This document shows, piece by piece, positions 15,596 through 59,869 of a DNA stretch of 64,000 nt. Position 1 is the stretch's first letter. Each line of letters opens with the position of its first letter. Both the position numbers and the translations under genes were made by a program. The DNA comes from Bacteroidales bacterium (GTDB lineage: Bacteria; Bacteroidota; Bacteroidia; Bacteroidales; F082): the NCBI GenBank assembly GCA_017632935.1, contig JAGBQJ010000013.1, positions 5,970 to 69,969 on the forward strand, in the 5' to 3' direction. The notes under the pieces are model-generated. The model was not told the origin of the DNA, did no database searches, and saw nothing but the letters and a program-made list of their open reading frames with translations.

Positions 15596-15670
15596 TGTGT
15601 TTCGATTTTGGTGTTTTCAAAAAAAAGCCGCCCGACTGGACGGCTTTTCAACATTCGACCCGATAAGCGA

Positions 15671-16342
15671 TTAGTCGCGCTTCTTGGGTTTGGCAGGACG
15701 CTTGGTGACGGCCATCGTGCCAAAACCAACGAGAGCAATCTTGGAGCCAGTGGCGAGCATGAAGCCGCTGAAAGTGTCTTCGGCTTCGCCGTAGGCGGCC
15801 AGACCGACATTGAACGACTGGGAACCAGTCGTGCCGATGGTGGCGGTGGAAGGCACCAGATAGACTTTCTTCTTGGTGACGTTGGCCACGAAGATGACGG
15901 GGTACTCCTCGCCGTGCTCAGCACGGAAGGCGTTGGCACCCTCCCAAGAAATGGTCAGGTTTTCGCCAGCAGCGGCGATGGTAACCTCTGGCAGGTCATC
16001 CGTCGGCGCGTTGCCGAGGGAGTTGATGTTGCCCAAGTCGACGCTCTTGGTGTCGCCATCGACGGTGGCGACAGCGGTGAGTTGCTTGACGAGGACGTTG
16101 TGACGGGTCATGCCGCTGATAGCCTCAGGGAACAAGAATTTCATCTGTTCGTCCGAGAACTGGGCGGCGATGTCCAGAACTTCCCTGAAGAAGCCGCGTT
16201 GCTTGGTCTGTGCTGCGGTCTTCGGGTTCTTGTGGGACTGGGCGAGGCCACGCATGTAGCTGATGCCGTTCCACGATGCACCGATGACGGTGCCAACCTT
16301 ACCTCTGAATCCTCCGAGGATTCCTTGCTTAATCTTTCCCAT
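15671..16342 (-). CDS. Hypothetical protein, paralog 1 of the tandem triplet
   Basis: 223 aa. N-terminus MGKIKQGILGGFRGKVGTVIGASWNGISYMRGLAQSHK. Confidence 0.7.
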   Translation of the reverse strand: MGKIKQGILGGFRGKVGTVIGASWNGISYMRGLAQSHKNPKTAAQTKQRGFFREVLDIAAQFSDEQMKFLFPEAISGMTRHNVLVKQLTAVATVDGDTKSVDLGNINSLGNAPTDDLPEVTIAAAGENLTISWEGANAFRAEHGEEYPVIFVANVTKKKVYLVPSTATIGTTGSQSFNVGLAAYGEAEDTFSGFMLATGSKIALVGFGTMAVTKRPAKPKKRD

Positions 16343-16391
16343 TGTTCTTATCTTTTTAGGGGTTAGTAATTTTGGTTAGCTATCTTTTTCG

Positions 16392-16559: not shown

Positions 16560-17690
16560 GGCAAACGGAGACCCGCGTTAGAGGGGCGTAGTTTATTTAG
16601 GGGCTTGGCTTTTTTAAGCACCGTACCCATAGAATGAGACATTAAGCGTTTACGACAAACCACTTTTCCAAATTCAGGGTGGCGGTGGGGACGATGGTGG
16701 TACGGAGCGGAGCTTTGCGGAGCGACACTTTTCCGAATACTCTACTTAGGGTGGTAGGTGGGGTAAGTGGTGGCACTTAGGAGCGAAGCGACTGCCCTTC
16801 TTTCCAAATTGTCAAAATAGGGTGGTTGGAGGGGTACGAGGTGGTACAGGAGCGGAGTTTACGAAGCGACTGTGCTTTCCAAATGCTCAAATAAGGGTGG
16901 TAGGTGGGGTTTGATGGTGGTTGGCCAGAGCGGAGCTTTAGCGGAGCGACCTGACCTGAACTTTGGGGTGGTGGCCGGGGGTGACGGCGGCACGGATGTG
17001 CGTTGGCTCAGCAGGTAAGGGGGAAAAGCGCCTGCGGCTAAGGGGCGGTGACACTCACGCAAGAATGAGAAAACCGAGCCTAAACGACTATACGAGAGTG
17101 GGATACCCTGCGCCCCGTTCGCGCCAGCGCGGCCGACCCGCCCGACAGGAGTCCGCGCACGGTTTCAATCCGAAACGGCGGCGGGCGTGCCTTTTGCGGC
17201 GGCGACCCCGAAGAGGCAGGCACCAGTATGGTCATTGCGGGCTGAGGTGGCAACGATGAGGGGACGAAACAAGATGCGCTTTAGCGCACCACAAAGGGAA
17301 CCGCCGGGCGGACGCGCAAGCAGGGGCGCAAAACAAAAGGGGCGCGGCGACCCCCGCTAATAAGTTGCGAGGTACGAGAACCGCTTGGGGGTACGGGGGG
17401 CGACAAGAAAGCCCCGAGCGAGCAAGGAGCCACGAAAGCGGTTGGCCTTGGAGCCGCAAACGCTCGCTGGAGCCGCGCCAGTGGAGCGCAGCGGAACGAG
17501 TGTCGCGGGACAGCGAAGAGCAGCGGCGGTGTTGCGCAAGGGCGGCAACCTGAAAAAGCGCACGACGTAGGAGCTCAGCATTTTTTCAGATTGACGCTCG
17601 TTATACCCTTGCGCACACCAAGGCAACCGCAAGAAGCGGCGACGAAGGGAACACCGATTTCCCCCTCCTGCTGAATTAGGTAGGTTGAGC
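16560..17690. other. ORF-free, G-rich (plus strand) non-coding block A; candidate structured RNA or repeat region
   Basis: Only short Arg/Ala/Gly/Pro-rich ORFs occur in all six frames. It is clearly GC-richer than the flanking genes and has many local GC hairpins (e.g. GTTGCgcaagggcgGCAAC, GCGCtttaGCGC). Confidence 0.5.
16663..16950. repeat. Four degenerate tandem repeats of 64-80 nt, plus a decayed fifth up to ~17010
   Basis: Unit: CTTTCCAAAT-n-AGGGTGGTAGGTGGGG-n-GGTGG-n-GGAGCGGAGCTTTRCGGAGCGAC. Unit ends are at 16726, 16792, 16870 and 16950. Confidence 0.65.
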
Positions 17691-20257: not shown

Positions 20258-21568
20258 ATGTATATGAAAAGGCCATTTAGAATAAAAACAATAAAGAGAG
20301 CCAGAAAATGGATGAAACATCAATACGATGTGATAGCGGTGTTGGCCGTATCTTGTGTGGCTATTCTGTCTTCTTGCTCTGGTGATATAAATTCAAATTT
20401 TGATTCCCATTTTACCAATGATGGTTATTTAATACAGGATAGCACAAAACAGGATAATAAAGTACCCTTGACAAAAGCAAAGTTTTATGTTGAGGTCTCT
20501 GGAAGTATGAATGGCTTTTTTAGAGCTGGACAGCCGACAGATTTCAAAAAAGATGTTTGGCAAATACTCAGTTATTATTCACCTATTGCGCCTGGCGTGA
20601 CTATTTTGACAAATAATGGTGATGAAGGTAAAACTTATGATTTGAGTAATTTCCAGACTCAAATGAACACTGGTGCTTTTGTTTCGACCGCTTCAACGAG
20701 AGTACCTTTGATGCTTCAATCTATTATTGATAATTTGGATGCGGATAACGGGGAGGTTGCAGTACTTATTTCAGATATGAAATACAGTCCTGTTGGGCAA
20801 GCTGCGCCCAAGGTGCTGTTGACACAATACAGCACTGATGTCAGCAAGATCTTTGGACAGTACGGTAAAGCTATAAGTCTGGTTTGCGCCACATCTAATT
20901 ATCTGGACAAAAAAGGAAATTCCATTTGCGATGCTTCGCCATATTATTTTCTGATAATTGGCAACGACAGCGGTGTTGCAGAAATGCGTGATGGTATTTC
21001 CACCCTATTAACCAATGCTGGCAGGTTCGTTGACAACATTGAGAGCGGATTTAATTATGGCGGGATTAAGGAGAGTTTCGGTATTCCGAAAAAATGTTTC
21101 CAGATGGATATAAACGAGCCAACATTTGTTGAGTATGAAGAGGCTGATTCTTACGACACCTGCATCATCAATTTAAAAGTGGATTTGGCACCTTATCGTT
21201 GGATTCTGACCGATGAAAGCTATTTTGCAAGAGCTTTCAAGGCAAAAACCCTCTACGGAGCCAACCTTGTTGTAGATGACGTGAACATTGTAGTAAAAAA
21301 CATCACTGACAAGCAGTTGAAACGTACAGCAGAGGCCACGGTAAGACTAAAGCTGTTCAATATGCCCACAGATTCCGATGTCATTGAATGGACATTAGAG
21401 TTGCCTGACACGGATTACACTTTGTTTGGACAATTCTGTGGCGCGACTGCCGAAGAAGATGTTACCAAATCATATTCCATAGAAGATTTCCTTGTTGGTA
21501 TGTTCTACGGTGGTGTGGTAAATACAACGCTTAATCCCAATTACATTTTAGTTTCAAAAAATAGTTAG
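20258..21568 (+). CDS. vWA-like lipoprotein (operon gene 1)
   Basis: The alternative start at 20312 gives the lipoprotein signal MKHQYDVIAVLAVSCVAILSSC. KFYVEVSGSMNGFF is a degenerate MIDAS (E-x-S-x-S) and VAVLISDMKYS is a vWA beta-4-like strand. Confidence 0.6.
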   Translation: MYMKRPFRIKTIKRARKWMKHQYDVIAVLAVSCVAILSSCSGDINSNFDSHFTNDGYLIQDSTKQDNKVPLTKAKFYVEVSGSMNGFFRAGQPTDFKKDVWQILSYYSPIAPGVTILTNNGDEGKTYDLSNFQTQMNTGAFVSTASTRVPLMLQSIIDNLDADNGEVAVLISDMKYSPVGQAAPKVLLTQYSTDVSKIFGQYGKAISLVCATSNYLDKKGNSICDASPYYFLIIGNDSGVAEMRDGISTLLTNAGRFVDNIESGFNYGGIKESFGIPKKCFQMDINEPTFVEYEEADSYDTCIINLKVDLAPYRWILTDESYFARAFKAKTLYGANLVVDDVNIVVKNITDKQLKRTAEATVRLKLFNMPTDSDVIEWTLELPDTDYTLFGQFCGATAEEDVTKSYSIEDFLVGMFYGGVVNTTLNPNYILVSKNS

Positions 21569-21573
21569 TCGTT

Positions 21574-22017
21574 ATGAAATTACTGAAGCTGTATCAATGG
21601 ATCGCAGGAAAGTTGACCGAATTTTGCGCTCCATTCCAAAACAACGAGAGCTTGTATCAACAAGCCAGAGCCTTTTGGGGCAAGTTGGAAGGCATTTCAA
21701 CAATACTTTTAATCATCGCAGTGGTGATAGGTGTTTTGTTTGCCGTCATCTACTACAAGCCATACAACAACAAGCCAGGAAGACACTATACCCCCAAGTA
21801 TTGGGTTATTTTCCTGATTATAACATTTGTGGTGGCTTTTCTGTTGACATTGGGATTTGAATATATCTCAGTGGCACCACACTTAAAAGGCGCAATGTTG
21901 CTTGAAACTAAAATTGCACTTGGGAATGGAATCTATGCTTCAGCATTGTATTTCATTGTTTCGGTTTTGTGGTGCAACGCGCTACCGACTAACGCTTATC
22001 GATTGTTTGAATTCTAA
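21574..22017 (+). CDS. Small integral membrane protein, 3 TM (operon gene 2)
   Basis: Hydrophobic segments ISTILLIIAVVIGVLFAVIYY, YWVIFLIITFVVAFLLTLGF and IYASALYFIVSVLWCNAL. It starts 5 nt after gene 1. Confidence 0.65.
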   Translation: MKLLKLYQWIAGKLTEFCAPFQNNESLYQQARAFWGKLEGISTILLIIAVVIGVLFAVIYYKPYNNKPGRHYTPKYWVIFLIITFVVAFLLTLGFEYISVAPHLKGAMLLETKIALGNGIYASALYFIVSVLWCNALPTNAYRLFEF

Positions 22018-22029
22018 ACCCAACCCGAT

Positions 22030-23427
22030 ATGAAAAAAGTATTTGTTTTTTGCATTGGAGGTACTGGCATTCGCGTGATGAAGAGCATCACGATGCTGAT
22101 GGCAAGCGGAATGAGTACCAGCGGTTTTACCGTTGTCCCTGTTATCCTTGACCCGCACTTGGATTTAGAGGAAAAGAAGAATTTGCACTCGTTGATAGAA
22201 TCATACGAGGAAATATATCGACACTCAGTCAACAATGGGACATCAACGTTGAATTCTCTTGATGGCTTTTTCAATTCTGAAATGCTTACCATCGGAGAAC
22301 TCAATGAACAACTCAATGACACCCAACAAGCGGCTGGAAACACTGAAAAGTTCCGTTCATATATCAACGTGGCCAACCTTGGTGCAGATAATGTGAACAA
22401 CTATTTCGTACAGACGCTGTTTTCAAATAAGAATCTAAACAATCCTTTGTCGGTCGGCTTCAAGGGGAATCCCAATGTCGGTACCGTAGTGCTCGGTGAA
22501 ATGATTGAGGGAGCGGATTGGTTCAAAGCGTTTAAGACCAAATGCGAGAAAGACGACAGGGTATTTATTATTAGCTCCATCTTTGGAGGCACTGGGGCTT
22601 CAGGTTATCCGCTGCTGGAGAAAAAGATTAGAGGAGCTTCTGATAATCCAACAGTTAAAAATGCACTGATGGGAGCAGTGACTGTGTTGCCGTACTACGG
22701 GCTAAAAGATCCTACGACAACGGGCAGTGACATTGACTCGGCTAACTTCTACACTAAGACAAAAGCGGCTCTTGCCTATTACCAGAACACTGTGCAGTCG
22801 GATTATCTTTATTACGCAGGAGAAAAGACTTTGAGGCAGGTCTATGAGAATGACGAAAAGAAGCAAGAGGACACCGCTAACTTCATTGAACTGGTTGCCG
22901 CATCAGCCTTGTTTGATTTTCTAAAGAGAGAAAGACCGGACAGAAAACAATATATGACCAGGGCAATTGACGATGACGTGGAGTCATTAGACCTTGTGAC
23001 GATGGGCAGTGGCTATAAGGAAATCGTCAAGTGTGTTGCCGACTATATGATTTTGAGAACCTTTATTCAAAATCTTCCCAACGAGAAATACTTCCCTTTG
23101 AAGAAGAACAGAGGACTTGATGGAGGTTTTTACAAAGATGCAGCATTCCAATCATTGGTGCGCTTTACTGAGAAATACTATCAATGGTATTATGAACTTT
23201 CGACGAACAATCGTGCGTTTGCTCCATTGCACTACGACAGCATTAAGCAGATGGATGGATGGGTAAAAACCATCGACCTTGACGCAAAGGATGATTCATA
23301 CTATCTGCTCCGAATGATTGAGGCCAGCAATAGATACACAAAGAAGGATCATAGCAACAAATTCAGGTTCTTCCTGCAATTCGCCTATGAAGCAATAAAT
23401 GGTTACACACAGAAAATAATGAAATAA
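22030..23427 (+). CDS. Tubulin/FtsZ-superfamily-like GTPase (FtsZl-1-like, putative; operon gene 3)
   Basis: N-terminal T1-like loop VFVFCIGGTGIRV and T4-like signature SSIFGGTGASG (nt 22585-22605; compare the tubulin signature [SAG]GGTG[SA]G). No obvious FtsZ C-terminal domain. Confidence 0.55.
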   Translation: MKKVFVFCIGGTGIRVMKSITMLMASGMSTSGFTVVPVILDPHLDLEEKKNLHSLIESYEEIYRHSVNNGTSTLNSLDGFFNSEMLTIGELNEQLNDTQQAAGNTEKFRSYINVANLGADNVNNYFVQTLFSNKNLNNPLSVGFKGNPNVGTVVLGEMIEGADWFKAFKTKCEKDDRVFIISSIFGGTGASGYPLLEKKIRGASDNPTVKNALMGAVTVLPYYGLKDPTTTGSDIDSANFYTKTKAALAYYQNTVQSDYLYYAGEKTLRQVYENDEKKQEDTANFIELVAASALFDFLKRERPDRKQYMTRAIDDDVESLDLVTMGSGYKEIVKCVADYMILRTFIQNLPNEKYFPLKKNRGLDGGFYKDAAFQSLVRFTEKYYQWYYELSTNNRAFAPLHYDSIKQMDGWVKTIDLDAKDDSYYLLRMIEASNRYTKKDHSNKFRFFLQFAYEAINGYTQKIMK

Positions 23428-23430
23428 GAT

Positions 23431-26400
23431 ATGGCAAAAGTTGATTTAAATATTGTTGATAGAGGCACTAACAGTTCCGAATGGAAAGCAGAAGGAACGC
23501 CTTTGCAATCTGGCGACCTTGACAAAGTGCTTGAACAGAAGACCGACAATAGTGGTGCATTGAACTCGCTTCCCACACCTTTTGCCAGGTTTTTTGTCGC
23601 TCGCGAAGCTTTTAGAAGAGTCAATGAAGAGAAGCTGAATCCAAAGGAAGGGGCTGGCTTTGCCTATACGCAATTAGTTTCTGATATCCTTGATGTCTAT
23701 GAACTGTTGTTTAATCTGAAATACCACAAGAACAACACTTGGAAAGATGGTCAAAAGCTGGAGCTGAGAGAATGGAATAGAAAGGAGAATCTCGATTATC
23801 TCAAAGCGAAGATGCCTGTTCTATATAATTCTGTTGTAGATTACTACAAGACAGATATCCTCGAGGACAAACTGTATTTTCTCGTCTATACTGAGAATGG
23901 CAAAGAAGTGTTGTTGGCTTGCAGCTCCCCCATCACAGGCTTTGTCACACCGCCAGACATGGACAAGGCTGTTCTGAAGAAAGACAACACCGACACTATC
24001 TGTTTTACAGGTGAGCAATACCAAAACCTGCACATTAGGAGAAAATCAGGCGGGGAGTATTTCAGAGGTGATGTCAGACTGTTTGACAAGAGAGATGCTG
24101 AGTTTAAGAATTACATGTATTCAATGTTGTTTGGCACTGATACCGTTGACGAGAGATTTAAGGCCATCAAGGAATATGTGCGTAGTTTCAACAATGACCC
24201 AGAGATACGCAACGATTTTAGATTAAAGACAACTCCGGTGTTGACCGACCAGAATGACGGTTTGGTAATAAATGGGCTTTGCATACAGTCTTCAGATGAA
24301 ATTGATATCAACAGCTATTTCACTGACACCATGATTCGAGTACCTTATCGCATTTCGAGAGACACATTCAAATCGGTCGTTTATCAGAACGATGTTCAAG
24401 GTAGAAATTATGACTATTTGCTGCCTTTCAAGCCTGAAGTGATGAATCTGTTTGATGGAAAAGAACTTGACTCTGATGTACACATCAACAGAAATTCCGT
24501 AACGGTCACTTTACGCTATAATGGGAAGGAATACTCGAAAGAATACTCTCAAGACACCTTCCGTGCTGGTCAAGGTAGAATTGTTGACCTGCAAGGAGCG
24601 AAGATTAGCTTTGACCTTGGCATCTTCCCCAATATCCTATCCTATAAGGATGTCGAGAACAATTACTTCAAGGTGCTTGTGGTTGCAGCCGATGAAGATG
24701 CTGATGCCCCCAACTTCAATATCGACCAAATCAATCTTGCTTTTTTCAAGCAAGCTGAAAATGGTTGCAAGCAGATAAAAGAAGTTGTTCCTGAAGACAT
24801 GGCTGAATATGGCGTGGAGCCAGCAGCGGTACGTTCACGCCAAAAAACGGACGTAGAAGAAAGCGGCACCAAGTTCTATGAACTGTTTAACACGTCGTTT
24901 GACATGATTGAAATCAATGTCATGGGTGACACAGGTCTGTTGATGCCAGTATGGCAACACAGCCAAGCAAGCAATGAAACCTTTACCTATGCAATTGACC
25001 TTGGAACGTCCAATACATTTATGTCGCGTTGCAAGAATGACAGCCAAGGCAATCCGGACCTTAGCAGGAAGCCTGAACTCTTCAAGATGGATAAGACGAT
25101 GGTGAATTACATGCATGAGTATTCAGACGATACGCAGTATTCCATCACTCGACGCATAGAAGATTCGATTTTCAACAAGGCAAAAAAGAAAATCAAGACT
25201 GAATTTGTGCCAGCTGTCATCGATGGCAAGGACTATAGATTCCCCATCCGCACTGCTTTGTGTGGTATTCACAATAAGACCAAGAAGCCGAAATTGTTTG
25301 ACAACCACAACATCGCTTTCTTCTACGAGAAACTCATGGCGAACGACGACCAGGATGTGAACACCGACATCAAGTGGGAACAAGACGAGGACAAATTGCG
25401 CGTCTTTGTTAGAGAGCTGCTGCTCATCATCAAGTGCGATATTCTGCAAAGGAATGGCGACCTTGACAGAACCAATCTCGTTTGGTTCAGCCCATTGAGC
25501 TTTATGGGGAACACAAGAGAGGTTTATCAGAACATCTGGAACACTGAGCCAAAGAAAATACTGTTCATCCAGCCACAGCAAATCGTTCGCTATTCAGAAT
25601 CCGAGGCACCCTATTACTACTACAAGAAGATGGACTACATCAAGGATTCTGATGCCGTTACTGTCATCGATATTGGTGGTGGCTCGACTGATTTCGTGTA
25701 CTTCAAGGATAATGAGCCGCAAGTTGCCAATTCCGTCCATTTTGGATGCGATGTGCTCTGGGAAAATGGTTTCAATGCGTTTGCCAATGTTAGGGAGAAT
25801 GGTATATTCAAGAAATACGTTGACACTATTCGTTTCCAAAGGAAAGACCTTGAAGACTTGAATGAGTGCTTCAAGAATGTTGATTCCGTGAAGACCAAGG
25901 ATGTTATCAATTTCTGGCTTAGCAATGCCAAGGATTGTGACATCATCAAGTTCATGAGCCAGGACTTCAAACCCGTGTTTGCTTATCACTTAACAAGCAT
26001 CCTTTACTACATGGCCAATATGTACAAGGATAAAGGACTTGAAGCCCCGAGAACCGTGGTATTTAGCGGAAACGGCAGCAAGTACATCGACAATTTCATT
26101 TCGAGCGAAAGCAACATCCTGAAAGAAATTATTGATTTGATATTTGCGACAGTGTTTGGAGGAACGCATAATGTAAACATTAAGCTTCCTGATGAACGCA
26201 AGGAGTCGACCTGTTATGGTGGTTTGTATCGTGACAAGAACGCTCCGATAGTTAAAGATGTCGTTTACCAAGGCGATGTAACAAAGAGCTACGAAAAGGT
26301 GGGCGACATGAATAGCAACTTAGATTCGTTGAAATCTGTGCTGATGACCAAGTATAAGGATCTTGCTGCCTTATATAAGTCCGTCTTGGATTTGCTCAAA

Positions 26401-26592
26401 AAAGAGAAAATCATCGACGGGACTTCAGATACTCGTCGTTATGTCAGCAAGGCAGAGGAAGATATGGGTACACCATTCACTACCTACTACAAGACGCAAG
26501 TCAAGGAAAAGTATGGTGAAGAAGTTATCTATAACGATTCCGTGTTTTTCTTGCCCGTAATCAACAAGGTTTTTGAAATGACTAAAATCTAA
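23431..26592 (+). CDS. Large (1053 aa) protein with a C-terminal Hsp70/actin-like (ASKHA) ATPase domain (operon gene 4)
   Basis: Phosphate-1 motif YAIDLGTSNTF (nt 24991-), phosphate-2 motif VIDIGGGSTDFVYF (nt 25663-), adenosine motif VVFSGNGSKY (nt 26056-). The N-terminal ~500 aa were not recognised. Confidence 0.6.
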   Translation: MAKVDLNIVDRGTNSSEWKAEGTPLQSGDLDKVLEQKTDNSGALNSLPTPFARFFVAREAFRRVNEEKLNPKEGAGFAYTQLVSDILDVYELLFNLKYHKNNTWKDGQKLELREWNRKENLDYLKAKMPVLYNSVVDYYKTDILEDKLYFLVYTENGKEVLLACSSPITGFVTPPDMDKAVLKKDNTDTICFTGEQYQNLHIRRKSGGEYFRGDVRLFDKRDAEFKNYMYSMLFGTDTVDERFKAIKEYVRSFNNDPEIRNDFRLKTTPVLTDQNDGLVINGLCIQSSDEIDINSYFTDTMIRVPYRISRDTFKSVVYQNDVQGRNYDYLLPFKPEVMNLFDGKELDSDVHINRNSVTVTLRYNGKEYSKEYSQDTFRAGQGRIVDLQGAKISFDLGIFPNILSYKDVENNYFKVLVVAADEDADAPNFNIDQINLAFFKQAENGCKQIKEVVPEDMAEYGVEPAAVRSRQKTDVEESGTKFYELFNTSFDMIEINVMGDTGLLMPVWQHSQASNETFTYAIDLGTSNTFMSRCKNDSQGNPDLSRKPELFKMDKTMVNYMHEYSDDTQYSITRRIEDSIFNKAKKKIKTEFVPAVIDGKDYRFPIRTALCGIHNKTKKPKLFDNHNIAFFYEKLMANDDQDVNTDIKWEQDEDKLRVFVRELLLIIKCDILQRNGDLDRTNLVWFSPLSFMGNTREVYQNIWNTEPKKILFIQPQQIVRYSESEAPYYYYKKMDYIKDSDAVTVIDIGGGSTDFVYFKDNEPQVANSVHFGCDVLWENGFNAFANVRENGIFKKYVDTIRFQRKDLEDLNECFKNVDSVKTKDVINFWLSNAKDCDIIKFMSQDFKPVFAYHLTSILYYMANMYKDKGLEAPRTVVFSGNGSKYIDNFISSESNILKEIIDLIFATVFGGTHNVNIKLPDERKESTCYGGLYRDKNAPIVKDVVYQGDVTKSYEKVGDMNSNLDSLKSVLMTKYKDLAALYKSVLDLLKKEKIIDGTSDTRRYVSKAEEDMGTPFTTYYKTQVKEKYGEEVIYNDSVFFLPVINKVFEMTKI

Positions 26593-26597
26593 AGGCT

Positions 26598-28208
26598 ATG
26601 CTTGTTATTTCATTTGTAGCGTTTGGCCTTTGCCTTTGCTTTCAACTAAAGTATTTTCTTGAAACAAGGAAGCAACGAGAGTTATACTATCATTTCTTCA
26701 AAAAGAAGCAGCCATACGATGTTAGTTTAACTGAAGTTAATACAGAAGTCTATACTCAGTTAGTGCAAGTAGGTGAAGAAGGTTCAGACTTAAATCAGCT
26801 TATTGAGGAGATTAACCACTATATTCTTAAAACCAAAGGCACTACTGATTTTGCTGTCATACAAAACAAGGTAGAGCGCAAGTTGAATATGCGGTATGAC
26901 CAATCTGTTGCTAAATTGTCGTTTCCAACCCATTTCGGTCTGATGGGAACCTTCCTGGGGGTTTTTATTGGAGTTTTAATGTTTATTATTGGCTTTGATA
27001 GTACAAATGGAATAACGGACAATTCAATAAAGAACTTGCTTGAGGGCGTTCTTGTCTCTATGCTAACCAGTTTATGCGGATTGGGTCTGACCACATGGAA
27101 TAATGCCAGGGCTGGAGAAGCGAGAAAGAAGATAGAAGAAGATAAGAATGAGTTCTATGATTTTGTACAGACAGAGTTGATGCCTTCGCTGGATGTTAGT
27201 ATGGTAGCTGCTATCAGTAAATTACATCAAACAGTTGACCGTTTTGAACCAGCATTTGACAGGGTTATCAATCGTTTCCAAACCACGTTTGACAATTGCA
27301 CAAAGGCATTTGGCGATAGCTTCGAAAAGAATGTTAGGGCTGTTGCTACTGCGGTAGATGTGATGGGTAAAAACATGGATAAAATCAATGAAAATATCGA
27401 CCTTCAAGAGAGACTCCTTGCTACATTTAAGAGTGGTGAGCTGGTGCAAGGACTTGACAGATACATTGAGGCATCCAACAACTTCGTCAGTATTACCCAA
27501 TCGCTCAATAAGTTTGAAGAGGCTCGCAGGATGATGTTGGCGGCCACGCAAGAGGCCATCAATCTTCAGAACGCATATAGTGACTCGTTGCAGGTTCCTC
27601 GTGAAGTTGCCGTGCGCATCAATCAGATACTGGATAGAATTAAAGACTTCGAGGAGAATATAAATCGCATCGGAGGTCAACTTGAAAGAAGGGATATACT
27701 TGGCAATGATGTTGTGAACAAATTACAGGAACAAATCAGTGGCATATCGAAAAAGGGCAAGATTGCGGACAAGTATTTGGAAATAGCTGATGGCCGGTTG
27801 GAGGATTTATACGCTCAACAAACCAAGGTAATAAACGAGATGAACAGGCGATATAGAGAAGCACTTGAAGGACACATAGACGGCTTTGAGAAGATGATTG
27901 TGCATCAAACCGAGGAGCTTGAAAAGCGTCATGGTGACTTTATGAAGGCCATTGAAGAGCGGCTGACCATTGAAGATGTGCGCCAAGAATTTGTGAATTT
28001 GGGCAAACTGAAGGACATTGATGGAAAGATGGCCGAAGTTTCAAAGCGTGTTCCTACTTCTGACGAAATACAAAAGGCTGTTCAAAAAGCCATGCAAGAT
28101 GCAGTTCAACCAATTCAGAAGGAATTGGATGAAATGAAGAAAGACTTTAGAAAGCAAATGGAAGAATCCAAATCTGGCGTTTTCGGAGGCCTGTTTGGTA
28201 GGCGTTGA
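26598..28208 (+). CDS. MotA/ExbB/ZorA-like membrane protein with a long C-terminal coiled-coil tail (operon gene 5)
   Basis: TM1 is at the N-terminus. A MotA-type TM pair follows: FPTHFGLMGTFLGVFIGVLMFIIG and LLEGVLVSMLTSLCGLGLTTWNNA. The remaining ~360 aa are E/K/L/Q-rich and heptad-like. Confidence 0.65.
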   Translation: MLVISFVAFGLCLCFQLKYFLETRKQRELYYHFFKKKQPYDVSLTEVNTEVYTQLVQVGEEGSDLNQLIEEINHYILKTKGTTDFAVIQNKVERKLNMRYDQSVAKLSFPTHFGLMGTFLGVFIGVLMFIIGFDSTNGITDNSIKNLLEGVLVSMLTSLCGLGLTTWNNARAGEARKKIEEDKNEFYDFVQTELMPSLDVSMVAAISKLHQTVDRFEPAFDRVINRFQTTFDNCTKAFGDSFEKNVRAVATAVDVMGKNMDKINENIDLQERLLATFKSGELVQGLDRYIEASNNFVSITQSLNKFEEARRMMLAATQEAINLQNAYSDSLQVPREVAVRINQILDRIKDFEENINRIGGQLERRDILGNDVVNKLQEQISGISKKGKIADKYLEIADGRLEDLYAQQTKVINEMNRRYREALEGHIDGFEKMIVHQTEELEKRHGDFMKAIEERLTIEDVRQEFVNLGKLKDIDGKMAEVSKRVPTSDEIQKAVQKAMQDAVQPIQKELDEMKKDFRKQMEESKSGVFGGLFGRR

Positions 28209-28219
28209 TACTGAGCATT

Positions 28220-29041
28220 ATGGACGGAAACAATAATGGTTCGTTTTGGCCGAGTTACGTGGACGTTATGACAACGCTGTTTGCCATAATGCTCGTGTTG
28301 TTTGCCGTGTCTTTCAGTCGATTCAAAATCAAAGAGAAAGAATTGACAGAAAAAGTCGAAGAGCTTAGAGATACGGAAACAAGGCTTCAGGAGATTGTGG
28401 ATGAATACGACGATATTCTGAAGATTTATTCCACTGTTGGAAAAATCGACGCGACAGACTATTTCGGCTACAACAAGCCCTATCTGAAACATTTGTTCCA
28501 GATAAATGTGGAGTATCAGACGAAGGAATATGCCATCAATAAGCTGAAGCTTGATTTGACTGATGTAAACGCGGCCAACAAAAAAAGAGATAGCATCGTT
28601 GCCGCTGGTGAGTTGATAAAAAACACCATTCTTGAATTGAATAGTAGCGTTCCTGATACTATAGAGAATAACATCAAATTCCTCGTTATCATCGAGGGTC
28701 AATCTTCAAGGATTCCTTTCAACGAAGGGCCATGGAGAAACAATTACACCCTCTCCTATCTAAGGGCACAATACCTGAATGCGTTTTGGAAAGAACATGG
28801 CATTGATTTGAATAGCATTCCGAGATGTGAACTTATTATTTCTGGTAGTGGCGAGGAAGGTGTACCGAGAGAAGTGCCAGATAAAACAAGGCTCACTCAA
28901 TTATTCCCCAATAGCGTCGATTACCAAAAGCAATGGCATAAGATAGAAGAAAGGAATCAGCGTTTCTTAATAAACATCGTGCCAGTGTTGGGTAATATCG
29001 ACAGCACAAGAGAAAAGATTGAAAAGATAAAAGGCAAGTAG
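28220..29041 (+). CDS. MotB/ZorB-like protein with an OmpA-like peptidoglycan-binding domain (operon gene 6)
   Basis: FWPSYVDVMTTLFAIMLVLFAVS contains the conserved plug/TM Asp (nt 28262-28264). C-terminal FLVIIEGQSS...NNYTLSYLRAQYL is OmpA-like. A TTG at 28205 is an alternative start. Confidence 0.7.
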   Translation: MDGNNNGSFWPSYVDVMTTLFAIMLVLFAVSFSRFKIKEKELTEKVEELRDTETRLQEIVDEYDDILKIYSTVGKIDATDYFGYNKPYLKHLFQINVEYQTKEYAINKLKLDLTDVNAANKKRDSIVAAGELIKNTILELNSSVPDTIENNIKFLVIIEGQSSRIPFNEGPWRNNYTLSYLRAQYLNAFWKEHGIDLNSIPRCELIISGSGEEGVPREVPDKTRLTQLFPNSVDYQKQWHKIEERNQRFLINIVPVLGNIDSTREKIEKIKGK

Positions 29042-29042
29042 A

Positions 29043-30206
29043 ATGGGTGCGTTATGGTCTGAAGATTACGAAAAGGTGTTTGGCAAGCCAACAAAGTGGT
29101 CGCTTTTTTCGGAGGACGAAGAGGCGTATGAGGCTTTCCGTAAGACCATCATAAACTCACCTCATTACGTGTACGATAAGGATAAGCTGCCTTTTACAGG
29201 TGTGAAAGTCTATGGTTACGATTTGTATTTATTGAAGCTTACTATCGACCAGAAAAAAGCAGAGGGCAAGAAACTGTTTTATATCAAGGACGAAACACCT
29301 GGTTTAGCCAAGGTTCTTGCATTTGGCTATTTTAACAAAAACAGTCAATTGTTTTATTTGCTTGCCAACAGCTTGATAAGAAAGACGGATTTCCAACAAA
29401 AGATGAAGAAGGATTCGTCTCTTTATTGGCCAGTCTACAGGTTGCAAGCTAAAAGCGAGATAAGAAAATGCGATGCCGATACGAAGGATGAACAAGGCCG
29501 AGCCTTGCAATTAGAGTTGTTTCAACCAGAAGGCTATCGCATGATTGAGGACGTGGATTGTTCCGCATCCTTAGCTGCAGCTTATGCGCTTGGTCAGGAA
29601 GCTGATTTTACGAAGTGGAAAGGGATGGATGGCAAGACACTCGCGGAAACATATCCCTTTTATAGCGGAAGCTATTCTGAGCTTATTGATATAAAAACTA
29701 CTTGGAGCAAACTTCGTTCTCTGAAGGAAAAGCCCACACCGATTGTTGAAGAAAATGGCACAGACAAGCTATCGTTGTTTAATAAGATCATCACTCCTCT
29801 TATTCAGCACAAAGAGAAAGCAGCAGCCAAAAAAGTTGCACATAAGCGCAAGGAGTTGACCGAAATACAATGCTTTTTGATAGACGAAGGGCAAAGTGAA
29901 AAGTACAGCGCAAGGGGATGCTATTATGTGAAAGAAGAAACCATCAAAGTTTTTGCTGGTGCGGTGTTATCCACCGATGTTTCGTCTACGCTTAGGTATT
30001 CACTTGCGGACTACCAACGTAGATCTTTCATCAAGGAGCATTGCTCAACTAAGAAGTCAAAATATACACTGAAAGAAGATTATTACTTTGATTCGGCAGA
30101 CACTGCTGCACTTTATGTGATGGGACAGATTGTCGAAGGATTATCGGTGTGGATGACAATTGATGGCAAATCATTGGAGGAAAGAATCAATGAAGAAGTA
30201 TATTAG
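29043..30206 (+). CDS. Hypothetical protein with two DUF4357-like motifs (operon gene 7)
   Basis: Internal duplication: DCSASLAAAYALGQEADFTKWKGMDGKTLAE and FDSADTAALYVMGQIVEGLSVWMTIDGKSLEE. These resemble the SPSxAAxxxxGxxxNGxxxWKxxxGKxL tail of DUF4357. It starts 1 nt after gene 6. Confidence 0.5.
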   Translation: MGALWSEDYEKVFGKPTKWSLFSEDEEAYEAFRKTIINSPHYVYDKDKLPFTGVKVYGYDLYLLKLTIDQKKAEGKKLFYIKDETPGLAKVLAFGYFNKNSQLFYLLANSLIRKTDFQQKMKKDSSLYWPVYRLQAKSEIRKCDADTKDEQGRALQLELFQPEGYRMIEDVDCSASLAAAYALGQEADFTKWKGMDGKTLAETYPFYSGSYSELIDIKTTWSKLRSLKEKPTPIVEENGTDKLSLFNKIITPLIQHKEKAAAKKVAHKRKELTEIQCFLIDEGQSEKYSARGCYYVKEETIKVFAGAVLSTDVSSTLRYSLADYQRRSFIKEHCSTKKSKYTLKEDYYFDSADTAALYVMGQIVEGLSVWMTIDGKSLEERINEEVY

Positions 30207-31047
30207 TATAGCTTTGGTCTTTGTGGTTGTGCTGCTTATTATGGCTTTGATTATTCGAGGTTCGAATGATTCAGAAGAGGTGTATGATGGGTTCGTACAA
30301 CAGGTTGAACAAAACGACACGCCTTCGTCGAGCAATCCTGTTGGACAACTGCGGACAGGACTGGAAATCCCATGCTATGATTTTGTGGTAGATGAACAGA
30401 TAATGGCTAAGCGAGGATATACTGTTTCGTTTAATCCAGATACCAAGCTGCCCAACTGGGTTGCGTATGAGCTGACTGCCGATGAGACAGATGGGCCTTG
30501 GACAAGGAAAGGTTTAAGGTTCGTCCCTGACCCATATTGTAAAGGAGAACAGGCAGACAGAGAAGACTATAGAAACTCGGGGTATTCACATGGTCATTTG
30601 GCTCCTGCGGGAGATATGAAATGGGACAGCTTGGCCATGATTGAGAGTTTCTATTACACGAATTGCATACCACAAGATGCCAATTTGAATACAGGAAAAT
30701 GGCACCAGCTGGAGGAAAAAACTAGAAAACTTGCAAGAGAATATGGCAACGTCTATATCGTTACGGGGCCAGTTATTCAATATGATTCAATAGAGAGAAT
30801 TGGGAATCACGGAATACCTGTGCCTATAGCTTGTTACAAGGCTCTTATGATTCGCAACAAGGAACGCTACTCGGCTATAGGGTTCGTCATGCTCAATGGA
30901 GGCGAACAGCGATCAATGAAAGAATGTGCCTGTACTGTGGATGAGCTTGAAGCGTTGCTTGGCTTGAACATGTTTTACAATCTGCCTAATGACATAGAAG
31001 AGGGCGTTGAAAGCAAAGTAACTTGGGCCGATTGGAATCTGCGGTAG
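30190..31047 (+). CDS. Signal-anchored DNA/RNA non-specific endonuclease (NucA/EndoG beta-beta-alpha-Me family; operon gene 8)
   Basis: MKKYISIALVFVVVLLIMALII anchor. Catalytic region YSHGHLAPAGD (nt 30589-30597 = HGH) and NCIPQDANLNTGKW. It overlaps gene 7 by 17 nt. Confidence 0.75.
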   Translation: MKKYISIALVFVVVLLIMALIIRGSNDSEEVYDGFVQQVEQNDTPSSSNPVGQLRTGLEIPCYDFVVDEQIMAKRGYTVSFNPDTKLPNWVAYELTADETDGPWTRKGLRFVPDPYCKGEQADREDYRNSGYSHGHLAPAGDMKWDSLAMIESFYYTNCIPQDANLNTGKWHQLEEKTRKLAREYGNVYIVTGPVIQYDSIERIGNHGIPVPIACYKALMIRNKERYSAIGFVMLNGGEQRSMKECACTVDELEALLGLNMFYNLPNDIEEGVESKVTWADWNLR

Positions 31048-31085: not shown

Positions 31086-32150
31086 TCATCGTCCATCTTC
31101 AACAAGTCCCAACTCATCAATCATGTGTTGTATGCTCGGCAGCGTTTCCATCATTAGCTGCAAATCGGTTTTCGGCTTGCCGAATAACCATTGATATTCA
31201 GCCTCTGGCTTTGGTGGGACATAACCGCCTTTCAATTCATCAATAAACACATCAGCGATGTCAATCTTGGCGGCTCGTTGCTCGGGAGACGCATGCTTCT
31301 CCAAAGCGTCTGAGACGGTTATTTTACAGAACGCGAGCGTTTCGGCTTGCTTCTTCCAAACCTCATAAGCGTCAACGTCGGGGAACAAGATAACCGTTCT
31401 ACCAGTCAAAACTTTCATTTTTTCGACTGGCATCTGTGATTTGCCTCCTGTGGCAAGCCAAAGAAATTGAGGGTGGTATGCTGCACCAATCAAGGCGGTT
31501 TTCTCGCTCTCAACGACTGCAACAACTTTGTCCTTGTTCATTGACCAATTCAGCAAGTGCTCACCAAACAAGCATTGCGTCACCTCCCAATCATCAGGCA
31601 AAAGACCGTCTTTCTTCATCTTGGCATGAACCCAATTCACACCATACCCATCTTTGGTGCGGTGGCCATCTTCGCCATACTTCATTATCTTGCCCGACCT
31701 CACTCTGCCGTTGATGTCGATTTGCCAGAAGATGACATCTCTGTCTTTGGTGGCGCCGAGTGCATACAGTTCGCCCAGCCTTTTTATTGTCGGACTGTCA
31801 AGGGTGTTTCTGTCGAACAAGCCACAGAGGAACAAGATAAAGTCGCTGTTGTAGCTTGCCGACTGAAGCACATACCTGAAGGGGATGGTGCAAAGTGGCT
31901 TGGGAGGCTTGGGCTGAGGCCGTTTCTTGGCGGTAATGTTCTTAGGGCGTTGTTCGCCTTGATGGTCTTGGAAGTATTCGCTTGGGGTGTAATGGTAACA
32001 GCAACTGCTTTCATGGTCGCATCGGCCACAAGTTGGGTCGATGGGCTGGTTGTCATCGTCAACATAGTACGTGAAAGAATGAGGGTCGTGGCAATTAGGG
32101 CACTCGTGGCGTGAGGCTCTGCCGTGGTATTTTTCAAGTTGATAGTTCAT
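31086..32150 (-). CDS. DNA primase-like protein (N-terminal zinc finger plus Toprim-like domain)
   Basis: The start is set at Met 32150 (MNYQLEKYHG). Cys/His cluster: HECPNCHD...CGRCDHESSCCYH. Toprim-like motifs: VVAVVESEKTAL and VILFPDVDAY. Confidence 0.65.
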   Translation of the reverse strand: MNYQLEKYHGRASRHECPNCHDPHSFTYYVDDDNQPIDPTCGRCDHESSCCYHYTPSEYFQDHQGEQRPKNITAKKRPQPKPPKPLCTIPFRYVLQSASYNSDFILFLCGLFDRNTLDSPTIKRLGELYALGATKDRDVIFWQIDINGRVRSGKIMKYGEDGHRTKDGYGVNWVHAKMKKDGLLPDDWEVTQCLFGEHLLNWSMNKDKVVAVVESEKTALIGAAYHPQFLWLATGGKSQMPVEKMKVLTGRTVILFPDVDAYEVWKKQAETLAFCKITVSDALEKHASPEQRAAKIDIADVFIDELKGGYVPPKPEAEYQWLFGKPKTDLQLMMETLPSIQHMIDELGLVEDGR

Positions 32151-32166
32151 TGGCTTTTCTCCTTCT

Positions 32167-32236
32167 TGTCCCGCTGTCCCATCTGTCCCACTGTCCCACG
32201 AATGGTACATTTGGGACGGTGGGACACTTGGGACAC
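32167..32236. repeat. Iteron-like array: 4x TGTCCC(A), then 3x inverted (T)GGGAC, spaced 8-9 bp
   Basis: Direct copies start at 32167, 32175, 32184 and 32192. Inverted copies start at 32213, 32221 and 32230. The array lies in the 89-nt gap between the ATPase stop and the primase start. Confidence 0.65.
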
Positions 32237-32239
32237 TTC

Positions 32240-33415
32240 TTATTTAAGTCCAAGTTTCTTGACGATACGTTGAACTGTGGACTTGCTTATGCCTAACTGC
32301 TCCGCGATTTCACGGAAAGAAAGGCCTTGGCTACGTAGTTCCATGACGGTGTTTTCAAGTTCCGAAACATCGTTTTCGGAACGCTCTTTAAGGTGTTCTC
32401 GTTCGGTTGCAAATTCCATAGGAACGAATTGCAGGAATGCGTTGATTTGCTCTAATTGACACACAATCACATTATCTGCACCATACTCAAATTCACCATA
32501 ACGGACTTTCATTTGCTTTATATAACGCAGTCCAGCATCCTTTGCACTCCTGCCGATAGAGAAGCAACTATCGAAAAAATTGAATAGTTTCTTGCTCCCC
32601 GCCACATCGTTTTGCGTTATTGGGCTTGAAAGACTGCGTTTGGGAGTGTGAGCGATGATAAGCAAGGACAAATCGTACTTCTTTTTTAATTTGATGAGTT
32701 TCATCATGAATTGCCCTGCGATATCGCCTTTCTCGCTGTTGCTGCAGATCCATGTCAGATTGTCGATGATTATCACTTTTGCTCTTGTTTGTAGCGCAAC
32801 AGCCTCTATCTGGTTAATGATGTCGTCCTCGAAGGTTTTGACATCCAACAATTCTTTATCAATATCACTTCGAAGAAAGTTATCCGAAAAATGATAAGTA
32901 TTTCCCTCCTTATCCGTGTATCGGAGTTGGAACTGCTTGTCAGAAAGCTCAAAATCGAAGTACAACACTCTTTGCATTTGCGCTATGCTTTCGGCAATCT
33001 GGACGGCATAGATGGATTTGCCCAAATTGCTGTCGGCGAACAGACAGCAGACTTCACCCTCATACCATAACGACAACCATAGTGGCTTGGGGTCAGGACG
33101 TTGCTTCGCCTCCATCAAGGTTTGGTTGGCTGACTTGATACGAAACATTCCAACAATTTCGGGAACCGCATCCTTCACGGCTTCCGACTTCTCCAAATCC
33201 TCCTCGATGGCCTTTAAGATACTCGTGTTGTTCTCCTTTTCCATGTCGTTGCTCGTGGTTGTTGTAATTGTTGAAAGAACTCTCGTTGGCGACAACGATT
33301 TTGTAACATTTACAGCAATGGATTGGGATTTATTTTGTACCTTTGCAACACCTTCATAAAGATTCATTGATTTGGCGGCTGCGCTTGGCGTGGCCGCTAT
33401 TCCTATTATTTTCAC
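32240..33415 (-). CDS. RecA-like/AAA ATPase (replicative helicase or loader-like) with a C-terminal HTH
   Basis: Walker A FADSNLGKSIYAVQIA, Walker B KVIIIDNLTW, C-terminal HTH LSFREIAEQLGISKSTVQRIVKKLG. Confidence 0.65.
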   Translation of the reverse strand: MKIIGIAATPSAAAKSMNLYEGVAKVQNKSQSIAVNVTKSLSPTRVLSTITTTTSNDMEKENNTSILKAIEEDLEKSEAVKDAVPEIVGMFRIKSANQTLMEAKQRPDPKPLWLSLWYEGEVCCLFADSNLGKSIYAVQIAESIAQMQRVLYFDFELSDKQFQLRYTDKEGNTYHFSDNFLRSDIDKELLDVKTFEDDIINQIEAVALQTRAKVIIIDNLTWICSNSEKGDIAGQFMMKLIKLKKKYDLSLLIIAHTPKRSLSSPITQNDVAGSKKLFNFFDSCFSIGRSAKDAGLRYIKQMKVRYGEFEYGADNVIVCQLEQINAFLQFVPMEFATEREHLKERSENDVSELENTVMELRSQGLSFREIAEQLGISKSTVQRIVKKLGLK

Positions 33416-33756
33416 GCCTTGCCTCCTTTCTTTGAGTAATTGTCATTGAGTAGTTGCTCGATGTCTCGTCGTCGGTAATAGATTTTGTTATTTATCCGGG
33501 TATAAGGCAGAGTGCCATTGCTTCGTAGTGTCTGCAAGGTGCGCAGACTGACGTGTAGAGCGAGCATGACATCCTGATTATCAACCCAATCCTTCAAGCC
33601 GTTTTCCTCACTGTCGCTGTCATCGATAACGAGGTCGGGATAGGCCTCCCGAAGGGCTTTAAGGCAAGGGCACTGTTCAAGTGCTTGCCTGAAGAGGTCT
33701 TTGTGGCCATTGGCAGTGTTTGCTATGCCGATGCCGACGAATTTAGAGCTGCTCAT
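33412..33756 (-). CDS. Excisionase-family/AlpA-like HTH protein
   Basis: VMLALHVSLRTLQTLRSNGTLPYTRINNKIYYRRRDIEQLL (HTH_17-like). It overlaps its neighbours by 4 nt. Confidence 0.65.
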   Translation of the reverse strand: MSSSKFVGIGIANTANGHKDLFRQALEQCPCLKALREAYPDLVIDDSDSEENGLKDWVDNQDVMLALHVSLRTLQTLRSNGTLPYTRINNKIYYRRRDIEQLLNDNYSKKGGKA

Positions 33757-34058
33757 TTGGGGCCTCCTTTCTGTAAGATGTGGTTGATGTCGCTCTGTCT
33801 GTAGCGGTCGTTGCCACCTATCCTTATTGGGACAAGGTAGCCTCTCTGCTTCCAGCGATAAAGCGTAGCCTTGGAGATTTCGAGCATCTCCATGACCTTC
33901 TCACCGGTCAGGTAGGCTTCGGCTTTGCTCTCGCTGATACTCTGCTCCAGCTCGGCTTTGGTTTCAGCAATCAACTGGGTGGCAAAGTCCTTTAATTCCG
34001 CTGCCGTGATTGTGATGTTGATTGCGGGTGCGCATTGCGCCAATTCTTGAATATTCAT
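33753..34058 (-). CDS. Excisionase-family HTH protein
   Basis: VMEMLEISKATLYRWKQRGYLVPIRIGGNDRYRQSDINHIL (HTH_17-like). Confidence 0.7.
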   Translation of the reverse strand: MNIQELAQCAPAINITITAAELKDFATQLIAETKAELEQSISESKAEAYLTGEKVMEMLEISKATLYRWKQRGYLVPIRIGGNDRYRQSDINHILQKGGPK

Positions 34059-59845: not shown

Positions 59846-59869
59846 ATTATCTGTGGCTGGATAAATACG

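Follow-up and report, generated by a model that had tools for sequence, protein, structure and literature searches.

Zorya is among the few immune systems thought to convert a mechanical or ion-motive signal in the cell envelope into a cytoplasmic response, and how the tail of its motor communicates with the effectors is debated. The known Zorya types combine the proteins ZorA and ZorB (ZorAB) with ZorC and ZorD, with ZorE, or with ZorF and ZorG. ZorAB forms a 5:2 motor that depends on ion flow, on peptidoglycan binding and on its cytoplasmic tail, and upon infection a nuclease effector is recruited to the membrane (PMC11890865). Here we examine a gene cluster, g1-g8, at positions 20258-31047 of a 64,000-nucleotide (nt) stretch of a Bacteroidales contig (JAGBQJ010000013.1; the whole stretch is referred to as the window). 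The cluster lies in an element integrated at a tRNA-Lys gene, and in it the genes for a ZorAB-like stator adjoin genes for proteins with predicted tubulin-like and actin-like folds.

Two further groups of operons bear comparison with this cluster. FtsZl1, which corresponds to Pfam Tubulin_2 (PMC9871819), is encoded in operons with von Willebrand factor A (vWA), GTPase and OmpA-family genes, for which a role in membrane remodelling was proposed by Makarova and Koonin 2010 (PMC2875224). Additional file 5 of that study lists the Deinococcus operon in the order hypothetical protein (421-478 amino acids, aa), hypothetical protein (108-109 aa), FtsZl1 (1070 aa), MotA/TolQ/ExbB (411 aa) and OmpA (200 aa) (PMC2875224). 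The predicted DO-GTPase/GAP1-N2 conflict systems comprise tubulin or HSP70 themes with vWA and membrane components and variable effectors that include peptidases (Kaur et al. 2020, PMC7159879). These themes occur in Firmicutes and Actinobacteria, tubulin and HSP70 belong to separate themes, and no MotAB-like motor was described for them (PMC7159879).

The genes of the cluster are listed here with the evidence for each in brackets (TM, transmembrane; AF2, AlphaFold2; PDB, Protein Data Bank).

20258-21568, forward strand: g1, predicted lipoprotein of 434-436 aa, invariant member of the core (hydrophobic N-terminal segment, ILSSC lipobox)
21574-22017, forward strand: g2, small integral membrane protein with three predicted TM segments, core (hydropathy)
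22030-23427, forward strand: g3, predicted cytoplasmic tubulin/FtsZ-superfamily GTPase of 465 aa, core (AF2/Foldseek, Pfam, loops)
23431-26592, forward strand: g4, 1053-aa protein, core (AF2/Foldseek, Pfam, PDB profile, conserved motifs)
26598-28208, forward strand: g5, MotA/ExbB-superfamily channel subunit, ZorA-like (TM scan, PADLOC, NCBIfam, PDB profile)
28205-29041, likely start ATG 28220, forward strand: g6, MotB/ZorB-like subunit (PDB profile, PADLOC, Pfam)
29043-30206, forward strand: g7, variable accessory gene with a DUF4357 C-terminal region (Pfam DUF4357, 41.6 bits)
30160-31047, likely start ATG 30190, forward strand: g8, signal-anchored DNA/RNA non-specific endonuclease of the NucA/EndoG type, variable accessory gene (Pfam)

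The locus belongs to no named system and is a new combination akin to Zorya-type stators and FtsZl1-type operons. As in Zorya, a MotA/ExbB-type protein with three TM segments and a long helical tail (g5) is accompanied by a MotB-type protein with a TM Asp and a peptidoglycan-binding domain (g6), and the locus is accessory and mobile and has a nuclease gene in the operon. Unlike Zorya, it has no homologue of ZorC, ZorD, ZorE, ZorF or ZorG (no PADLOC match among g1-g4, g7 and g8), and the partners of g5 and g6 are instead a lipoprotein, a 3-TM protein, a tubulin-like GTPase and an actin-like ATPase, as predicted. Moreover, the g1-g4 part occurs also without any stator, and the nuclease here is dispensable and appears to be extracytoplasmic. 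The first-pass annotation of this DNA had known of no Zorya type with such partners, and none was found in PADLOC v2 or in the literature searched; full-text literature searches gave no description of a Zorya and tubulin combination, with subscription-only papers and newer DefenseFinder or PADLOC releases not excluded. The pairing is nevertheless not entirely without precedent, as a tubulin-like gene beside MotA and OmpA genes was catalogued in 2010 in the Deinococcus FtsZl1 operons.

A link to FtsZl1, which the first-pass annotation had suggested, is upheld by the Deinococcus order listed in PMC2875224 and by a MotA-like protein of Deinococcus deserti (plasmid NC_012529), which matches the g5 profile with 45.8 bits and an hhalign probability of 95.8%, a stronger match than that of ZorA. 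The Deinococcus FtsZl1 subtype (DR_0540 to DR_0536) resembles the cluster in its order of a ~420-480-aa protein, a ~110-150-aa membrane protein, a tubulin-like protein, a MotA-like protein and an OmpA/MotB-like protein. In contrast, g1, g3 and g6 have no profile similarity to their D. deserti counterparts. While FtsZl1 is a protein of ~900-1100 aa with a GTPase domain, an extended coiled coil and an alpha-helical C-terminal domain, g3 has 465 aa and no coiled coil in its AF2 model. The cluster further differs from FtsZl1 operons in having the separate 1053-aa actin-like g4 and in having no P-loop GTPase or kinase. Canonical FtsZl1 membership was rejected on the architecture of g3, and g3 is best regarded as a sister of FtsZl1 that is short and divergent. 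On D. deserti plasmid 2 (L104, 3352-15201), the FtsZl1 operon MotA-like gene is followed by genes for a repeat protein, a beta-helix protein and a PD-(D/E)XK nuclease, which is another nuclease gene beside a tubulin/MotAB cluster.

The cluster shares with the DO-GTPase/GAP1-N2 systems the presence of tubulin-superfamily and HSP70/ASKHA proteins, membrane components and variable effectors. No P-loop GTPase domain was found in the eight proteins, and GAP1, for which there is no public model, could be judged only by its absence among the recognisable genes. Membership in the DO-GTPase/GAP1 systems was rejected because no GTPase of the defining kind is present. TubZ and ParM are established plasmid-partition nucleoside triphosphatases (NTPases), and g3 and g4 resemble them in fold class and in being carried on mobile elements. 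Unlike TubZ and ParM, g3 and g4 are encoded with envelope proteins and lack an adaptor or a centromere component, and the fold searches placed FtsZ and MreB ahead of TubZ and ParM.

Composition and conservation of the cluster

To define the unit, one genome per species was scanned and the loci around the best 80 g3 relatives were clustered into families; the comparison covers 81 non-redundant loci of Bacteroidota. Relatives of g3 were found in at least 568 species, and the best 80 were all from Bacteroidota, among them gut and rumen Bacteroidales as well as Pedobacter, Hymenobacter, Spirosoma, Runella and Kordia. A single variant of g3 already accounts for 745 indexed blocks of the assembly collection, on contigs that include Phocaeicola vulgatus. 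The order g1-g2-g3-g4 is kept in practically all loci: g1 was found in 66/66 loci whose upstream sequence is long enough and the g2 family in 83/88 loci. Where at least 6 kb of sequence is available downstream of g4, g5 is present in 45 and g6 in 40 of 52 loci (the Fibrella loci fall just short of this cut-off and are thus outside the count). The genes g7 and g8 are confined to the close Bacteroidales clade, where they are often very divergent (26% identity for g7), absent or relocated; g8 is present in 10 of the 81 non-redundant loci, and in the locus L010 it lies upstream on the opposite strand.

More distant loci have one or two unassigned proteins of ~400-500 aa between g4 and g5, and the 3′ end of the operon encodes a retropepsin-like aspartyl protease, a trypsin-like peptidase, a WG-repeat protein or a Zn-ribbon protein. 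The trypsin-like peptidase of this slot also matches PADLOC RT-Protease_XI (3e-18). Endonuclease_NS genes adjoin the core in clades down to 58% g3 identity and are found near one distant cluster (L091). The first-pass annotation had proposed an eight-gene system, which did not survive the survey: g7 and g8 vary across loci, and the unit is therefore six genes plus two, that is, a g1-g6 core with replaceable g7 and g8. As judged from gene content, the cluster is an invariant g1-g4 module with a usually attached ZorAB-like stator and a variable, effector-like 3′ slot. The mobilizable plasmid Cy782204 of the cyanobacterium Gloeothece verrucosa carries g1-, g2-, g3- and g4-like genes (L098, 6881-16788); the MotAB-like pair is absent from this cluster, and two single-TM coiled-coil proteins with a common C-terminal domain are encoded there instead.

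Local replacement was seen between islands that are otherwise 97-100% identical (the window against L005/L007 and L006/L008), in which the first 80 residues of g5 are 45-52% identical and g7 is 64% identical. The exchange hot spots lie at the g4/g5 junction and within g7, at 26606-26781 and 29751-29916 of the window. Such replacement is as would be expected of components under conflict-type selection or of cassette exchange. Two typical Bacteroidales versions of the cluster (L015 and L020) are filed under 'Lachnospiraceae bacterium' and 'Escherichia coli' bins, most likely through mis-binning of metagenome-assembled genomes.

All eight open reading frames (ORFs) were located on the forward strand, and the distances from g1 to g8 are +5, +12, +3, +5, +11, +1 and -17 nt. 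This agrees with the range of -17 to +12 nt given in the first-pass annotation when g6 and g8 start at the ATG codons at 28220 and 30190, which independent gene callers chose on near-identical metagenomic contigs. The motifs quoted in that annotation are likewise in place, namely EVSGS in g1 (aa 79-83), CIGGTG and FGGTGASG in g3, DLGTSNT, DIGGGSTD and FSGNGS in g4, the MotB-type Asp at nt 28262-28264 and the nuclease HGH at nt 30589-30597. The guanine-plus-cytosine (GC) content is 0.39-0.43 in the operon versus ~0.52 in its flanks. A sigma-70 promoter scan found 29 sites, not above the shuffled-sequence background (mean 24.8, standard deviation (sd) 5.0), and a Bacteroidetes-type promoter pattern had 2 matches versus 2.1 expected. 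Terminator-like sites exceeded the shuffles (25 versus a mean of 9.2, sd 3.3); they lie mostly within coding sequence, with 14 of the 25 on the reverse strand and no strong candidate in any intergenic gap. The promoter and terminator scans speak neither for nor against a single g1-g8 transcript, and g1-g8 are assigned to a putative operon on the basis of their spacing and conserved gene order.

Folds and motifs of the encoded proteins

The first-pass annotation had read g3 as tubulin/FtsZ-like, g4 as Hsp70/actin-like and g5 and g6 as ZorAB-like, and it expected a tubulin fold for the product of 22030-23427. An AF2 model of g3 on the family alignment (predicted local distance difference test, pLDDT, 90.1; predicted template modelling score, pTM, 0.92) agrees with this expectation, as all 50 PDB matches listed by Foldseek are FtsZ, CetZ, tubulin or TubZ (best E 6.5e-5, probability 1.0). 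The template modelling scores (TM-scores) against the listed matches are low (0.25-0.41), and g3 is therefore a strongly diverged member of the superfamily. The loops T1 (GIGGTG), T3 (GFKGNPNVG) and T4 (GGTGASG) are conserved in the family and are accompanied by an alpha-helical C-terminal domain. Thus, model and loops together point to a tubulin/FtsZ fold for g3. At a clustering level of 50%, the family has 1590 representatives, and 402 of these lie below 1e-30. Pfam Tubulin (PF00091) is matched by 67/75 diverse family members and weakly by the window protein (E 0.003), and Tubulin_2 (PF13809) is matched weakly by 59/75 (best 1.3e-7); the g3 protein of the window has no match to PF13809 at E<=0.1, and further relatives bear 'faint' precomputed matches to it. 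An hhalign comparison of the family with a single, approximate E. coli FtsZ sequence gave a local match at T3/T4 only (probability <1%) and served only to label the loops.

The N-terminal ~510 aa of g4 form beta-rich domains with no assigned type, and from residue ~515 the protein resembles actin/MreB/ParM-like ASKHA ATPases with intact phosphate-1, phosphate-2 and adenosine motifs. Foldseek searches with the AF2 model (pLDDT 87.4) returned MreB (E 4e-9; TM-score 0.51-0.59 on the target), ParM and actin, with the nucleotide-binding domains of Hsp70 proteins lower down, so that the C-terminal half has the fold that had been anticipated for it. The ASKHA part of the earlier Hsp70/actin-like reading holds in both fold and motifs, but the protein resembles MreB, ParM and actin more than Hsp70. 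Pfam Ppx-GppA is matched with 28.2 bits against a cutoff of 27, and the family profile matched only ASKHA proteins in the PDB (MreB 4.3e-4, actin, FtsA and Ppx). Motif residues are invariant across 78 sequences (D523, G525, T526, D747, G750, D754, G880 and G882, in the patterns DxGT, DxGGGxxD and GxG). A weak match of g4 to a PHROG 'partition protein' (3e-4) was also obtained. A protein of 1611 aa in the representative library (P0250) is a natural g3-g4 fusion, with g3 in residues 1-416 and g4 in residues 528-1480, and this fusion speaks for joint action of the tubulin-like and actin-like proteins.

For g5 and g6, the nearest solved structures are ZorA and ZorB by profile comparison, in agreement with the ZorAB-like reading. 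The g5 protein has three TM segments followed by a ~360-aa helical C-terminal tail, and its family profile matched ZorA in the PDB at the TM core (8qyk, 8qyy and 8qyh; 8qyk 1.9e-5). No MotA, ExbB or TolQ chain was among the 60 PDB matches listed for this profile, the others being mainly coiled-coil and long-helix proteins, and Pfam MotA_ExbB is reached by 6/37 members of the family. The g6 protein has one TM segment bearing a nearly invariant Asp20 (nt 28262-28264) and a C-terminal OmpA-like peptidoglycan-binding domain. Its family profile matched the type I ZorB of Shewanella over the full length (8vvn_B, 2.7e-12) and E. coli ZorB (8qyd_F, 3.3e-7), compared with only 0.04 for flagellar MotB, and MotB_plug and OmpA were found in 10/33 and 8/33 family members, respectively. 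In PADLOC, g5 matched ZorA1 (2.5e-8) and g6 matched ZorB1 (1.9e-9), and ZorA and ZorB models were the only PADLOC matches of the two proteins; at most a partial match of this kind had been foreseen. The NCBIfam model ZorA_1 is matched by g5 at 1.6e-6, far under its cutoff.

The g1 family has an invariant lipobox Cys40 and further conserved columns at E79, S81, S83, S172 and D173, which form an ExSxS...T...SD pattern with spacing like that of a metal-ion-dependent adhesion site (MIDAS). No Pfam VWA match was found in 40 family members and no PDB match with the family profile. Of the earlier description of g1 as a vWA-like lipoprotein, the lipoprotein and the EVSGS motif are thus retained, but the vWA fold has neither a Pfam nor a PDB profile match and is suggested by motif and spacing, unconfirmed. 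For g7, two DUF4357-like motifs had been proposed; one is a DUF4357 match above the Pfam threshold, but the second is not. The g7 protein also matches the PADLOC single-gene candidate PDC-S14 (7e-16) over residues 257-381 only, and its P. vulgatus homologue matches the same model at 2.4e-42 in three stretches. The earlier reading of g8 as a signal-anchored NucA-type nuclease is sound, as the protein matches Pfam Endonuclease_NS (PF01223; 4e-48, 164.4 bits against a cutoff of 23) and has a TM segment at residues 14-32 and HGH at residues 144-146.

Genomic contexts and possible functions

Evidence on context comes from 11 distinct Pfam-annotated contexts, of which 8, the tRNA-Lys element of the window among them, are mobile or defence-island-like. 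In P. vulgatus, the cluster is in a conjugative transposon, co-directional with and directly after the genes for TraM, TraN and the type IV coupling protein (T4CP). The other contexts include an island with HepT/MNT, VapE, Gp49/HTH and PIF1; a type I restriction-modification (R-M) system with GIY-YIG; nSTAND3/AAA_11-12 helicases with ParB and another Endonuclease_NS (L091); HipAB with transposases and an integrase; UvrD, DUF1016, type I R-M, AAA_13 and RhuM; and NERD helicases with two AbiC genes. From this association, we judge it somewhat probable that the locus is a horizontally mobile conflict module, directed against phages or plasmids. No homologues of g1-g4 were found in phage collections or PHROGs, and a phage-encoded or anti-defence origin was rejected for that reason.

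How might such a module act? The computed folds, the conserved nucleotide-binding and TM Asp residues, the co-occurrence of six genes, the g3-g4 fusion, the contexts and the variable 3′ slot could be brought together in a mechanism in which ion-driven rotation, a 5:2 stoichiometry, polymerisation, the trigger, the target and protection itself are proposed by analogy. The putatively extracytoplasmic lipoprotein g1, together with g2 and the peptidoglycan-binding domain of g6, may sense a local disturbance of the envelope caused by the arrival of a phage or of a conjugative apparatus. Ion flow through g5/g6, as a peptidoglycan-anchored motor of the 5:2 type, would turn or re-orient the g5 tail, which may recruit or trigger a nucleotide-dependent assembly of g3 and g4 at the disturbed site. 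This assembly could block or sequester the invading DNA, or it could position and activate an accessory nuclease or protease. The 3′ slot would supply effector-like enzymes, here the DUF4357/PDC-S14-like protein and the NucA nuclease and elsewhere trypsin-like or retropepsin-like peptidases. More tentatively, and on the doubtful side of even, the locus may represent an unrecognised class of envelope-triggered immunity in which a Zorya-type rotary motor is coupled to a tubulin-like and actin-like pair, fused in some lineages, rather than to a dedicated nuclease complex, with the assembly of the pair acting as effector or amplifier and g1-g4 being an older module usable with other membrane partners, as on cyanobacterial plasmids.

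Several observations weigh against a defence role or against a purely mobile lifestyle. The defence role that the first-pass annotation proposed agrees with the mobile and defence-related contexts, but this agreement is one of association, and the cluster is syntenic across genera in the Spirosomataceae. Synteny of the cluster and its downstream neighbours extends over several species and genera in Fibrella and Spirosoma and resembles stable vertical inheritance, and g5 and g6 were not detected in Spirosoma loci with enough downstream sequence. Housekeeping genes flank the cluster in 3 of the 11 contexts. Phmmer searches found no integrase or tra relatives within 10 kb in 80 genome loci and almost nothing when primase and HsdR relatives were sought as well, and they support no claim of linkage to mobile genetic elements there. 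No PADLOC v2, NCBIfam or PHROGs model covers g1-g4, and the ZorA and ZorB scores are far under the curated cutoffs of the NCBIfam models (ZorA_1/2/4 and ZorB1; 26.8 versus 190 bits and 19.7 versus 400 bits). The predicted extracytoplasmic location of g8 fits poorly with an effector that degrades DNA in the cytoplasm; g8 may act on periplasmic DNA or be an independent passenger. The remodelling role proposed for FtsZl1 operons likewise stands against the conflict module.

An alternative but unlikely function is that of a non-immune machine for envelope or membrane remodelling, in which motor and polymers shape membranes, vesicles or surface structures and the mobile carriage is explained by some other benefit. 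The layout of the Deinococcus FtsZl1 operon is matched and its MotA-like subunit is related to g5, a membrane or periplasmic location is predicted for four of the six core proteins, tubulin and actin homologues classically serve in membrane and shape processes, and the apparently vertical Spirosomataceae synteny and the housekeeping flanks at some loci are in keeping with such a role. A remodelling machine accounts less readily for a patchy distribution with matches in at least 568 species and flanks that differ in nearly every genome, or for the repeated occurrence of the cluster next to genes for R-M, Abi, toxin-antitoxin systems, helicases and integrases and within an integrative and conjugative element and an integrative element. 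Moreover, the 3′ slot varies between nucleases and proteases, and the nearest solved stator is an immune one (ZorAB). It is very unlikely that the locus serves maintenance or transfer of its element, with g3 and g4 segregating or positioning element DNA or with an envelope complex acting in entry exclusion or mating-pair stabilisation. The precedent of TubZ and ParM, the presence of ParM among the g4 fold matches, the weak match to the PHROG 'partition protein', the co-directional position right after the tra and T4CP genes in P. vulgatus and the g1-g4 version on a mobilizable plasmid all fit such a function. However, no ParR/TubR-like centromere-binding adaptor is recognisable in the operon, the cluster is chromosomally integrated in the window element and in many hosts, where partition is unneeded, and a search within 10 kb yielded no tra, rep or integrase genes in the 80 genome loci. 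Known partition systems also have no role for a lipoprotein or a peptidoglycan-anchored stator.

It is possible too, if quite unlikely, that independent units merely adjoin one another, namely the g1-g6 module, a stand-alone PDC-S14-like gene (g7) and a stand-alone gene for a secreted nuclease (g8) that would serve in the turnover of nutrient DNA or of biofilm; this arrangement would be compatible with a conflict function of g1-g6. It would account for the many g1-g6 loci (most of them) without g7 and g8, the swapping of g7 between near-identical islands, the upstream, opposite-strand g8 of L010, the status of PDC-S14 as a single-gene PADLOC candidate and the signal anchor on g8. The gaps of +1 and -17 nt on the same strand, however, are too short to hold a promoter, Endonuclease_NS genes are found again next to the core down to 58% g3 identity and near L091, and peptidases occupy the equivalent position in other clades.

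As a candidate conflict module, the locus would offer a natural variant in which the effector side of Zorya is swapped for tubulin-like and actin-like NTPases, and hence another, independent system for studying the role of the rotating tail. If the proposal is correct, it would be the first case of both cytoskeletal NTPase superfamilies acting jointly in bacterial immunity, and the FtsZl1 operons ascribed to membrane remodelling in 2010 would gain a concrete and testable alternative function. Members of the family are abundant among Bacteroidales of the human gut and the rumen and travel on conjugative and integrative elements, and the family may shape the flow of phages and plasmids in the microbiome.

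The tRNA-Lys element and other features of the window

The first-pass annotation described the operon as cargo of a tRNA-integrated island, and the att repeats, the tRNA-Lys gene and the adjoining tyrosine integrase bear this out. The island is real because a direct repeat ties the 3′ end of the tRNA-Lys gene to a site just beyond the integrase. The repeats share a 20-nt exact core, CCCTGCGGGAGTACTTCAAA, and bound a 23.7-kb element that contains the operon, with the integrase just inside attR. Its features are as follows (HTH, helix-turn-helix).

13467-13540, forward strand: tRNA-Lys (CTT), the integration target (ARAGORN; Rfam tRNA, 67 bits)
13520-13546, no strand: attL, direct repeat over the tRNA-Lys 3′ end (repeat family D4, 27 nt, 89% identical to 37204-37230)
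31086-34058, reverse strand: island backbone, with a Zn-ribbon/DUF6371 primase-like gene, an AAA_25+HTH gene and two HTH_17 excisionase-like genes (Pfam)
34277-35584, reverse strand: 435-aa ORF between the excisionase-like genes and the integrase (no Pfam or PHROGs match)
35597-37033, reverse strand: tyrosine integrase (Pfam Phage_integrase, 4e-10, and Phage_int_SAM_5)
37204-37230, no strand: attR, the other copy of the repeat from the tRNA-Lys 3′ end (start of the host gene apbE at 37567)

Another direct repeat, TTTyTGGCGTGnTTTTGGCGTGATA (92% identical), lies just inside the island ends at 13596-13620 and 37063-37087 and may be an arm-type binding site of the integrase. Three tandem DUF6266 paralogues are found at the tRNA-proximal end of the island (14126-16366), and a DUF6266 gene is also present a few kb downstream of the Hanamia caeni cluster (L090, 19026-19751). 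Within a 3.8-kb stretch of the island that is poor in long ORFs, about four G-rich units of 71-75 nt with the pattern TTTCCnAAT...AGGGTGGTnGGnGGGGT...GGAGCGnAGC occur at 16660-16960; these units have no Rfam match, and the window has no Rfam family besides tRNA. Elsewhere in the window, further stretches of low GC content (0.34-0.42 versus ~0.52) at 44000-46000 and 52000-60000 may be other acquired segments.

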